Below, piece after piece: positions 60,973 through 62,281 of a DNA stretch of 64,000 nucleotides. A program made the position numbers and the translations under genes. The DNA is taken from the NCBI RefSeq assembly GCF_011045215.1, contig NZ_CP049201.1. One strand, written 5' to 3'. Each line of letters begins with the position of its first letter. The stretch's first letter is position 1. Below the pieces are notes generated by a model. It was given only the letters and a program-made list of their open reading frames with translations, searched no databases and was not told where the DNA came from. The stretch comes from Escherichia coli (lineage in GTDB: Bacteria > Pseudomonadota > Gammaproteobacteria > Enterobacterales > Enterobacteriaceae).

Positions 60973-61785
60973 ATGATCTACATTATAAATGATGAAGTAA
61001 GATTCAACTCATCATCTAATAAGTTAACATCACTCCTTACATCAGAGGAAGTGATACTCACTTATCCTGCGGGAAAATGCTTAAAATTACTTTTAGATAA
61101 CGCTTATAGTGTCGTATCGCACAATCAATTCTTTGAAAAAGTCTGGAGCGATAGCAGCGCTGAAGTCGCAACCAATACTTTATATCAAAACATTTCGATG
61201 ATAAGACGCTCCTTTCGTGAAATCAGCTCATCGACGATATTTAATGATATTATCAGAACGGTGCCGCGTAAGGGTTTTAAAATCAATGAAGAAATCAACA
61301 TAACTGTTCTCGACAATAATCATACTGAGAATGAAAGTGTTGAGAGTGAAGAGGATGGTACCCACATTGAAAATATAAATAAAAATCATGTTGCAAAAGA
61401 TATTTTCACCACAAAGAATACATTACTTATAGTGTACTTTTTTGCGGCATGGGGGATAGTGTATATATCTTCTTATTTTTTCGATATGGCTTTTCAAAGC
61501 AAAGCTCACACTATAAAAAAAACAGATGCTTTCTCAAATTATGCTCAACATCCTACTCAGGAAGGGTGTAGCTATTTCTATGACAATATATATTTTAATT
61601 CCGTAGACATGTTATCACCGATTATTGAAAAATTGCAGAAAATGGAAATTAACTGCAAAATACATCCTTACATTTACATTGCAACAAATGATAGCATGAG
61701 CGGGTTTTATGCTTTCACCTGTAGTCAGATGTTAAACTCTGAATCACCAAATAATTGTAATTCTCTCTATTATAAAGCGGAGTAA
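60973..61785 (+). CDS. ToxR/CadC-like membrane-anchored transcriptional regulator (OmpR/PhoB winged helix plus one TM helix)
   Basis: 270 aa; N-terminal winged helix (...IRTVPRKGFKI); predicted TM segment LLIVYFFAAWGIVYISSYFF; Cys-containing periplasmic domain. Confidence 0.5.
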   Translation: MIYIINDEVRFNSSSNKLTSLLTSEEVILTYPAGKCLKLLLDNAYSVVSHNQFFEKVWSDSSAEVATNTLYQNISMIRRSFREISSSTIFNDIIRTVPRKGFKINEEINITVLDNNHTENESVESEEDGTHIENINKNHVAKDIFTTKNTLLIVYFFAAWGIVYISSYFFDMAFQSKAHTIKKTDAFSNYAQHPTQEGCSYFYDNIYFNSVDMLSPIIEKLQKMEINCKIHPYIYIATNDSMSGFYAFTCSQMLNSESPNNCNSLYYKAE

Positions 61786-61789
61786 TCAT

Positions 61790-62281
61790 ATGACTCAAAG
61801 ATATTTTCTATTTGCGGGAATAATTTTATGTGCTTTTATTGCAGCAATTCTTAGCCATATTGCGTTTCATCATGCCAATGAACCAGCAGAGCAAAACATA
61901 TCATGTAATGCCCATGTTATTAATTTCACCGATCATACGAAAATGGATCAATACTTTTCGTTAAATATGATTTCTGAAAATAATACAGGGAATATGTATC
62001 TCACGGGTGCTTACACGGTAAATGGGAAAAAAATGGGTTTCATCCGCCGATATGTGAGTTTTACATACAAGAAATTCCGTGATACCGTTTATTTCACCAC
62101 AGTTAAAATACAAAAAATACAAAAAGATGATAACATTAGTGATGAAATCCTTGAAAATATCACTTCTGATTTTTTCATAAAAGTAGACACCTCAATTAAT
62201 TTTTATGTTACACGTCAAAATGATTACAACTACGTATTCTCTACAGGCAGGACACCACGCTTCATATGTATTTCCCACTAA
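61790..62281 (+). CDS. Small membrane-anchored periplasmic protein (possible ToxS-like partner)
   Basis: 163 aa; N-terminal TM helix; starts 5 nt after the regulator stop. Confidence 0.4.
   Translation: MTQRYFLFAGIILCAFIAAILSHIAFHHANEPAEQNISCNAHVINFTDHTKMDQYFSLNMISENNTGNMYLTGAYTVNGKKMGFIRRYVSFTYKKFRDTVYFTTVKIQKIQKDDNISDEILENITSDFFIKVDTSINFYVTRQNDYNYVFSTGRTPRFICISH

Follow-up and report, generated by a model that had tools for sequence, protein, structure and literature searches.

A probable allelic variant of the OI-47 grvA-fidL operon, encoding a ToxR/ToxS-type co-component regulator, in Escherichia coli

The closest described relative of the gene pair considered here is the GrvA/FidL-like system of Escherichia coli O157:H7 (ECs_1274 and ECs_1273; z1531). 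The pair itself is located at positions 60973 to 62281 of a stretch of 64,000 nucleotides (nt) of E. coli contig NZ_CP049201.1 (assembly GCF_011045215.1), and this whole 64-kb stretch is called the window below. Both systems agree in the lengths of the two proteins (270 and 163 amino acids [aa]), in the 4-nt spacer between the genes, and in their neighbors, with nucleotide identities of 94.6% for grvA, 96.6% for fidL, and at least 99% for the flanking genes for fimbriae and a short-chain dehydrogenase/reductase (SDR). In Kinch et al. 2022, GrvA/FidL appears among the co-component cassettes, and the complex was modeled with a VtrA/VtrC-like interface (PMC9214523), and a 2026 preprint counts GrvA-FidL among the “coTTRs.” The GrvA/FidL system is already known and described in E. 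coli O157:H7, and the pair itself is not new.

The regulon of the O157:H7 system is given here as outlined in reviews of Tobe 2005 and Morgan 2013 and 2016. As far as these outlines go, RcsB binds to and activates the grvA promoter downstream of bicarbonate (reviews including PMC8565820), GrvA indirectly represses gadE via gadW, which leaves cells in exponential phase with less glutamate-dependent acid resistance, and the lower GadE level relieves the repression of ler and of the enterocyte effacement locus (LEE), with 21 LEE genes being downregulated in a ΔgrvA mutant (PMC10877973, PMC8565820). An earlier account of the window, made from the letters alone and called the sequence-only reading here, had stated that the target genes are unknown; this is not the case for the O157:H7 orthologue, for which these reviews outline a regulon with LEE up and gad down.

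Other pairs are more distant. The periplasmic domains of ToxR/ToxS from Vibrio show no detectable sequence similarity to those of GrvA/FidL, with 3% to 13% identity in structural alignments. ToxR possesses two periplasmic cysteines, whereas GrvA has four, and the ToxR/ToxS regulon differs from that of GrvA/FidL. YqeI/YqeJ, encoded at the locus of the second type III secretion system of E. coli (ETT2) in E. coli K-12 and avian pathogenic E. coli (APEC), is a paralogue with the same architecture, in which the regulator contains four periplasmic cysteines and the partner two, and YqeJ belongs to Pfam YqeJ_C; it differs by identities of 33% and 21% to GrvA and FidL, by overlapping open reading frames, and by being part of a type III secretion remnant and not of a fimbrial locus. 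The periplasmic domains of co-expressed YqeI/YqeJ form dimeric complexes (PMC9214523). MarT/FidL of Salmonella pathogenicity island 3 (SPI-3) is a member of the same family, gave FidL its name, and regulates the adjacent adhesin gene misL (PMC9214523), but island and target are different, and the likeness is one of published description; the identity of GrvA to MarT is given as about 30% (PMC10877973). In VtrA/VtrC, the bile-salt receptor of Vibrio parahaemolyticus, VtrA does not contain conserved disulfides (PMC9214523). PsaE/PsaF of the Yersinia pH 6 antigen, a co-component pair beside a chaperone-usher fimbrial operon that it controls, offers the nearest functional parallel to the neighborhood of grvA (PMC9214523, PMC10269533); however, PsaF has no detectable sequence kinship to FidL, its signals are pH and temperature, and a link of GrvA to fimbriae would be one of analogy.

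The grvA-fidL pair and its products

The pair is very probably an allelic variant of the E. coli OI-47 grvA-fidL operon and codes for a co-component regulator of the ToxR/ToxS-VtrA/VtrC type. The present analysis itself provided the basis of this assignment, namely, orthology, the architecture of the domains, their folds, a conserved gene pair, and purifying selection; input by RcsB and output to LEE and GAD are taken from the literature, and the heterodimer of the window allele, its ligand, and the direct DNA targets are inferred. GrvA was identical to ECs_1274 (grvA) of O157:H7 strain Sakai in 257 of 270 residues (95%), the partner to ECs_1273 (“FidL-like protein”) in 161 of 163 residues (99%), both without gaps, and the EAL protein encoded downstream was 98% identical to ECs_1272. 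The gene order, which comprises two-partner-secretion genes, a six-gene fimbrial operon, the SDR gene, grvA, fidL, the EAL gene, dgcT (ycdT), and pgaABCD, was the same in all four annotated genomes compared, strain 100181, THO-010, TW14359, and Sakai. The location on O island 47 (OI-47) of O157:H7 bears out the earlier proposal that the pair was horizontally acquired. The features of the pair are as follows.

Positions 60973 to 61785, plus strand: grvA orthologue, a ToxR-family transmembrane transcription regulator of 270 aa that matches Sakai ECs_1274 along its entire length with 95% aa identity.
Positions 61045 to 61281, plus strand: cytoplasmic OmpR/PhoB-type winged-helix DNA-binding domain, GrvA residues 25 to 103 (Pfam PF00486 Trans_reg_C, E value of 2.1e-11).
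Positions 61423 to 61479, plus strand: single transmembrane helix of GrvA, residues ~151 to 169, LLIVYFFAAWGIVYISSYF (Kyte-Doolittle maximum of 1.83, the sole region with at least 1.6).
Positions 61480 to 61782, plus strand: periplasmic domain of GrvA, residues 170 to 270, with a predicted β-β-α-β-β-β fold and the conserved cysteines C199, C228, C250, and C262.
Positions 61779 to 61782, plus strand: putative ribosome-binding site GGAG of fidL within the last grvA codons, 7 nt before the ATG, found by reading the sequence.
Positions 61790 to 62281, plus strand: FidL-like partner of 163 aa, orthologue of ECs_1273 (99% aa identity), Pfam YqeJ_C/FidL_like.

Both open reading frames were found exactly where they had been placed before, at 60973 to 61785 (270 aa) and 61790 to 62281 (163 aa) on the plus strand, but the spacer between them comprised 4 nt (61786 to 61789) and not the 5 nt reported. 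The position of the GGAG motif inside the end of grvA suggests translational coupling of the two genes. With GC contents of 0.333 for grvA, 0.327 for fidL, and 0.319 for the upstream spacer of 678 bp, compared to 0.472 for the whole window, genes and upstream spacer form indeed an AT-rich island (32 to 33% compared to 47% GC). The long AT-rich noncoding flanks that had been described on both sides exist only upstream, since the downstream spacer is just 100 bp long (62282 to 62381). No Rfam family matched in or near the grvA-fidL locus, and no terminator-like site was found in the 100-bp convergent spacer. Within the upstream spacer, which has otherwise a GC content of 28 to 33%, a GC-richer patch (~41 to 45% GC) at about 60580 to 60760 contained two short terminator-like hairpins and was not conserved in the corresponding spacer of Pseudocitrobacter.

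The N-terminal part of GrvA is a winged-helix domain that is not accompanied by a receiver domain. When a GrvA-family profile built from nine proteins was compared with solved structures, the best sequence match was the DNA-binding domain of V. cholerae ToxR with an E value of 1.2e-19, and a PhoB-family protein (3e-7) and CadC (1e-6) followed far behind, so that the designation as a winged-helix regulator is upheld by the Pfam match and by the closest solved relative. The Kyte-Doolittle scan (windows of 19 residues, threshold of 1.6) yielded a single segment above the threshold in each of the two proteins, in agreement with one transmembrane helix per protein as proposed before; the next-best window of GrvA reached 0.72. 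The orientation of GrvA with its C-terminal domain in the periplasm is inferred, because the DNA-binding domain must be cytoplasmic and the conserved cysteine pairs are C-terminal, where they fit a periplasmic, disulfide-bonded location. The predicted fold of this domain is of the ToxR/VtrA-like α/β type.

In the partner, the hydrophobic segment comprised residues 6 to 24 with a Kyte-Doolittle value of 2.51, and the next-best value was 0.53. The AlphaFold2 (AF2) model, calculated with an alignment of 64 homologues, had a predicted local distance difference test (pLDDT) value of 94.9 and showed a helix at residues 2 to 29 and then eight β-strands, which leads to a layout with a signal-anchor helix (~2 to 29) and a predicted periplasmic, eight-stranded, lipocalin-like barrel (~37 to 162). 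In a Foldseek comparison of this model with PDB, the best matches were the periplasmic domains of ToxS (8u2f, 8alo_B) and VtrC (5kev, 5kew, 8dml), followed by lipocalins. Among the 64 homologues, C39 was invariant and C160 conserved in at least 90%; these residues are located in the first and last strands of the barrel, 37 to 47 and 155 to 162. The small membrane-anchored periplasmic protein seen by the sequence-only reading can be retained with one N-terminal helix and a predicted barrel of the ToxS/VtrC type.

Local scans of the 163-aa protein with Pfam (including the PF15941 model and lacking PF27292) and NCBIfam gave no match, even at an E value of up to 10, and precomputed matches to PF27292 (YqeJ_C) and PF15941 (FidL_like) existed for its 99%-identical cluster. 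A word-indexed protein search reached only close E. coli relatives, and the wider family came from an exhaustive phmmer search, with 77 representatives at E values of up to 1e-3, nearly all of 150 to 165 aa, and from a genome scan. On contigs encoding diverse FidL-like proteins, a co-oriented gene was located directly upstream in three cases; the products of two contained Trans_reg_C, and the third, of 180 aa, matched the GrvA-family profile.

The genome scan, with one genome per species and an alignment of seven sequences, led to 27 loci in Trabulsiella, Kosakonia, Citrobacter, Enterobacter, Serratia, Pantoea, Buttiauxella, Erwinia, Mixta, and other Escherichia. In at least 22 of these 27 loci, as judged with hidden Markov models from alignments made in this analysis, the regulator gene was followed immediately by a FidL-like reading frame on the same strand, and the paired frames in the relatives usually overlapped by 1 to 11 nt. 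All intact pairs, 30 of which were examined, had one hydrophobic helix per protein, and every intact pair (about 30 pairs from Enterobacterales) had exactly four cysteines in the C-terminal domain of the regulator and two in the partner, the four periplasmic cysteines of the regulator being invariant in the alignments. The ToxR-domain match, the ToxS/VtrC-like fold of the partner, and the conservation of the pair across Enterobacterales substantiate the ToxR/ToxS-type arrangement. Two regulator-partner cassettes within ~6 kb (L016, L017, L024, L029) occurred in Trabulsiella, Citrobacter sedlakii, and “Candidatus Pantoea haifensis,” which recalls the tandem Salmonella pairs STM0341/2 and STM0344/5.

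For the interaction of both proteins, a fused model was calculated with AF2 that consisted of GrvA(170-270), a Gly/Ser linker of 30 residues, and FidL(25-163), using a paired alignment of 28 rows from the loci. This model had a predicted template modeling (pTM) score of 0.76, with pLDDT values of about 83 to 96 in both domains and below 50 in the linker, and about 50 of the 270 residues were disordered. A pTM score of 0.76 despite a disordered linker argues for a confident placement of the two domains relative to each other and suggests that the periplasmic domains of GrvA and FidL may dock as a heterodimer.

Expression and proposed function

The published activation of grvA by RcsB can be compared with the upstream region of the gene, which contains two sites.

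Positions 60840 to 60853, minus strand: RcsAB-box-like element TAAGAATAATCTTG in a perfect 9-nt inverted repeat, TTTAAGAAT/ATTCTTAAA, a candidate RcsB site at the grvA promoter.
Positions 60866 to 60895, plus strand: sigma-70 promoter-like site TTCACA-N18-TATACT, 78 nt upstream of the grvA start codon (10 of 12 matches in a consensus scan).

The window was scanned with TAAGAATAATCCTA, which is assumed here to be the RcsAB-box consensus, and the element at 60840 to 60853 was the sole match in the 64 kb, with two mismatches. It is located 12 nt upstream of the −35-like hexamer. The block of box and promoter was conserved in O157 and largely in Pseudocitrobacter, where the −35 region was kept and the distal spacer was not. 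The element is a candidate for an RcsB site at the grvA promoter, and the sequence of the window fits an RcsB input to grvA.

Combination of these data leads to the following proposal. GrvA would reside in the inner membrane with its cytoplasmic ToxR-like winged helix bound to DNA, one helix crossing the membrane, and a small, disulfide-bonded α/β domain in the periplasm. FidL would share the transcript of GrvA, with translation probably being coupled, and be anchored by one N-terminal helix; its lipocalin-like β-barrel, clamped by a C39-C160 disulfide, would dock onto the periplasmic domain of GrvA. By analogy to VtrA/VtrC, ToxR/ToxS, and PsaE/PsaF, the heterodimer may stabilize GrvA, sense a periplasmic cue, or both, and the leading guess for this cue is a hydrophobic ligand, for example, a bile salt. 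The cue would alter the activity of the membrane-tethered DNA-binding domain. As in the O157:H7 work, RcsB and bicarbonate would turn the operon on, and GrvA would lower gadW/gadE, so that acid resistance decreases and ler/LEE is derepressed. GrvA ties acid resistance and type III secretion of enterohemorrhagic E. coli (EHEC) to the sensing of envelope and bicarbonate, and the family of GrvA/FidL includes the bile sensors that activate virulence in cholera and in V. parahaemolyticus.

Evaluation of this proposal needs to consider a number of points that speak against it. The docking in the fused model was judged from pTM and pLDDT and not from the predicted aligned error or the coordinates, and the topology is based on the hydropathy scan and the AF2 helix and not on a dedicated topology predictor. 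A 2023 survey of transmembrane regulators gives GrvA no associated protein (PMC10269533), no ligand has been reported for FidL (PMC9214523), and no experiment was found, here or in the literature consulted, that shows FidL to be required for GrvA activity. The published effects of GrvA on gadE and LEE are indirect, as far as the reviews outline them (PMC10877973, PMC8565820), and do not identify direct DNA targets. Moreover, GrvA of the window differs from the studied allele at 13 of 270 residues, and the host strain is not O157:H7 and may lack LEE.

Divergence and distribution of the allele

The locus belongs to the accessory DNA of E. coli and was present in 410 of 5,426 complete E. coli genomes, always as a single copy. 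The closest genome was that of a strain from human stool in The Gambia, with 5 nt differences in 17.7 kb, while the identity of the locus to O157:H7 was about 95%; sources of the nearest genomes were human stool (Gambia) and guinea fowl. Carriers include O157:H16 and strains labeled as enterotoxigenic E. coli (ETEC) and APEC; hosts were guinea fowl, blackbird, duck, chicken, pig, fish, and mink, and one copy was found on a plasmid record. The distribution is wider than the restriction of GrvA to O157, O55, and O145 stated in a review (PMC10877973). Recognition of the pair adds no new biology, but it shows that ~7.6% of the complete E. coli genomes contain the system. Carriers outside of O157, isolated from birds, pigs, fish, and people, lead to the question of which role it has where LEE may be absent.

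Compared to O157:H7 TW14359, the synonymous divergence (dS) was 0.23 for grvA and 0.17 for fidL, with ratios of nonsynonymous to synonymous divergence (dN/dS) of 0.09 and 0.03, respectively. These low ratios indicate that both genes are under strong purifying selection and not decaying. The neighboring fimbrial and SDR genes had dS values of 0 to 0.016, with the exception of one chaperone gene (0.08), and the upstream spacer was 98.7% identical to that of TW14359; spacer, fimbrial, and SDR genes together ranged from 98.7 to 99.8%. In the comparison of positions 60973 to 62600 with TW14359 (L003), the divergence reached up to 16 differences per 200 nt at 61200 to 61600. With at least 99% identity, the fimbrial operon was found in 278 genomes and the grvA-fidL segment in only 3. 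A divergent coding block in a nearly identical island points to recombination, and grvA-fidL looks like a divergent allele in an otherwise nearly identical island, that is, like a recombination mosaic. In the same island, the fimbrial usher gene of OI-47 was frameshifted in TW14359 (L003, 9832 to 12349) and intact in Sakai and in the window, and the SDR gene, an intact open reading frame of 263 aa in the window, carried an internal stop and was annotated as a pseudogene in strain 100181, whose genome is the nearest (L001, 13204 to 13986).

Genomic neighborhood and alternative explanations

Two neighbors of the pair are of interest for its function.

Positions 52733 to 59357, plus strand: six-gene chaperone-usher fimbrial operon, neighbor and candidate local target (Pfam; syntenic in O157:H7 and Pseudocitrobacter).
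Positions 62382 to 63992, minus strand: vmpA/pdeT, CSS-motif EAL phosphodiesterase for cyclic diguanylate (c-di-GMP), neighbor outside of the pair and convergent with fidL.

The fimbrial operon encodes a 207-aa protein, the major subunit, a chaperone, the usher, a 444-aa adhesin-like subunit, and a second chaperone. In Pseudocitrobacter sp. RIT415 (L013, 704 to 10303; L007), the block of six fimbrial genes, SDR gene, regulator gene, and partner gene was intact, with ~51% identity of the regulator and 52% of the representative P0023 of the partner cluster. This module contained neither the EAL gene nor the two-partner-secretion gene; it was followed by genes for a sugar phosphotransferase system, and the other flanking genes differed as well. 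An EAL homologue within 10 kb was absent from 26 of the 27 genome loci, and the single exception was unrelated, whereas an usher homologue was located within 10 kb in 9 of the 27, in same-strand, divergent, or convergent arrangement. As judged from gene content, it is the fimbrial operon and not the EAL gene that is conserved along with the pair across genera. The EAL phosphodiesterase seen by the sequence-only reading is indeed an adjacent, convergent CSS-EAL gene but not part of a conserved module, being absent from Pseudocitrobacter and from the 26 loci.

The pair may primarily be a dedicated, signal-responsive regulator of the fimbrial operon at 52733 to 59357, and the effects on LEE and GAD a secondary co-option. 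This tentative explanation, which would complement the assignment as an OI-47 grvA-fidL operon, has a substantial minority chance. The Pseudocitrobacter block was kept intact despite a regulator identity of only ~51% and with all other flanks being different, and in E. coli, the genomes with the fimbrial operon and those with grvA-fidL nearly coincided (401 and 410 of 5,426), although genes of one island co-occur whatever their function. The 9 of 27 distant loci with an usher homologue compare with a chance expectation of 6 to 10%, but this figure is a rough estimate and the loci are phylogenetically nonindependent. Directly upstream of a 27%-identical pair in Citrobacter (L026), there was a related operon in which both the 444-aa adhesin and the second chaperone have homologues. 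Known relatives control adjacent adhesin genes, PsaE/PsaF (psaABC) and MyfE/MyfF those for fimbrial operons and MarT/FidL misL (PMC9214523, PMC10269533), but relatives of the ETT2 type (YqeI/YqeJ) have no fimbrial neighbor. No binding motif has been described for GrvA, and grvA is intact and active in TW14359 with its frameshifted usher gene.

A noncoding block at 52440 to 52550 (for instance, GAAAATTCAGTTGTTATACATGTGATGAATGTCATATATTG … AGGACAT) was common to the window and Pseudocitrobacter. It is located ~190 to 300 bp upstream of the first fimbrial gene, speaks for this explanation, and is probably a fimbrial promoter or regulatory region. Motifs common to the upstream regions of grvA and of the fimbrial operon were only trivial AT-rich heptamers. 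By analogy, the fimbrial operon is possibly, with a chance similar to or slightly below that of the explanation above, a local target of GrvA/FidL. Somewhat more doubtful is the extended scenario that GrvA/FidL was originally a cognate sensor-regulator of the fimbrial operon, like PsaE/PsaF, and travels between genera, that control of LEE and acid resistance is a later co-option, and that the divergent alleles reflect an exchange of sensor specificity.

It is improbable that the pair and vmpA/pdeT form one c-di-GMP module, with FidL or GrvA acting as a membrane or periplasmic modulator of the CSS-domain phosphodiesterase. Both loci were adjacent in all E. coli carriers examined, and periplasmic cysteines in both kinds of proteins may allow a shared redox control. 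However, fidL and vmpA/pdeT are convergent and consequently not co-transcribed, the EAL gene is absent from the Pseudocitrobacter module, and no EAL homologue was located within 10 kb in 26 of the 27 loci. A second, distant case (L011) combines a FidL-like gene (32% identity) with a convergent CSS-EAL gene (29% over the EAL half), but this locus also holds a remnant of a fimbrial adhesin gene and may be a decayed copy of the ancestral island instead of an independent association. An EAL-coupled module as a general feature was rejected in view of Pseudocitrobacter and the 26 loci with no EAL homologue within 10 kb.

The region in question, L011 from 4370 to 8009 (GCA_045575435.1), contained the orphan FidL-like gene with the regulator gene missing upstream, followed by the convergent CSS-EAL gene. 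The orphan was preceded by a 102-aa fragment with 56% identity to part of the 444-aa fimbrial adhesin, and dosC/dosP-like genes adjoined. L011 looks like a relative of the same island that has decayed.

Less probable still, and very unlikely, is GrvA acting alone as a CadC-like one-component membrane regulator with a functionally unrelated protein encoded downstream. All published GrvA phenotypes have been ascribed to grvA, and the survey mentioned above lists no associated protein (PMC10269533). Such a lack of relation would be at odds with the adjacent and usually overlapping genes for regulator and partner in about 30 pairs, the predicted ToxS/VtrC fold of the partner, the pTM score of 0.76 of the fused domains, the dN/dS ratio of 0.03 of fidL, and the dimerization of the co-expressed YqeI/YqeJ periplasmic domains (PMC9214523). 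Finally, that the pair is a decaying, nonfunctional remnant of an acquired island can be dismissed as extremely unlikely: the region is AT-rich and probably silenced by H-NS, and some relatives are pseudogenized or truncated (L037, L041, the Mixta loci, and the orphan FidL in L011), but both frames are intact in the window and in about 400 genomes, the dN/dS ratios are 0.09 and 0.03 despite dS values of ~0.2, and deletion of the O157:H7 orthologue is described in the review as having phenotypes (PMC10877973).

Further upstream in the window, a locus of the contact-dependent-inhibition (CDI) type with a cdiB-cdiC-cdiA-like order was located at 5491 to 16857 on the minus strand. It encodes a transporter of the ShlB/FhaC type (579 aa), an acyltransferase of the HlyC family (175 aa), and a 3,024-aa two-partner-secretion/hemagglutinin-repeat protein with a PT-VENN pretoxin domain and a variable C-terminal toxin. 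The 64-kb window yielded no tRNA gene. The CDI-type locus shares its element with a tyrosine integrase gene at 28731 to 29933 (400 aa, minus strand), which is followed by a match to the Hfq-binding small RNA STnc490 (30691 to 30814, minus strand, 146 bits) just before ycdU (31011 to 31997). This region of integrase, STnc490, and ycdU (28731 to 30814) is the junction where SpLE1 begins in Sakai.

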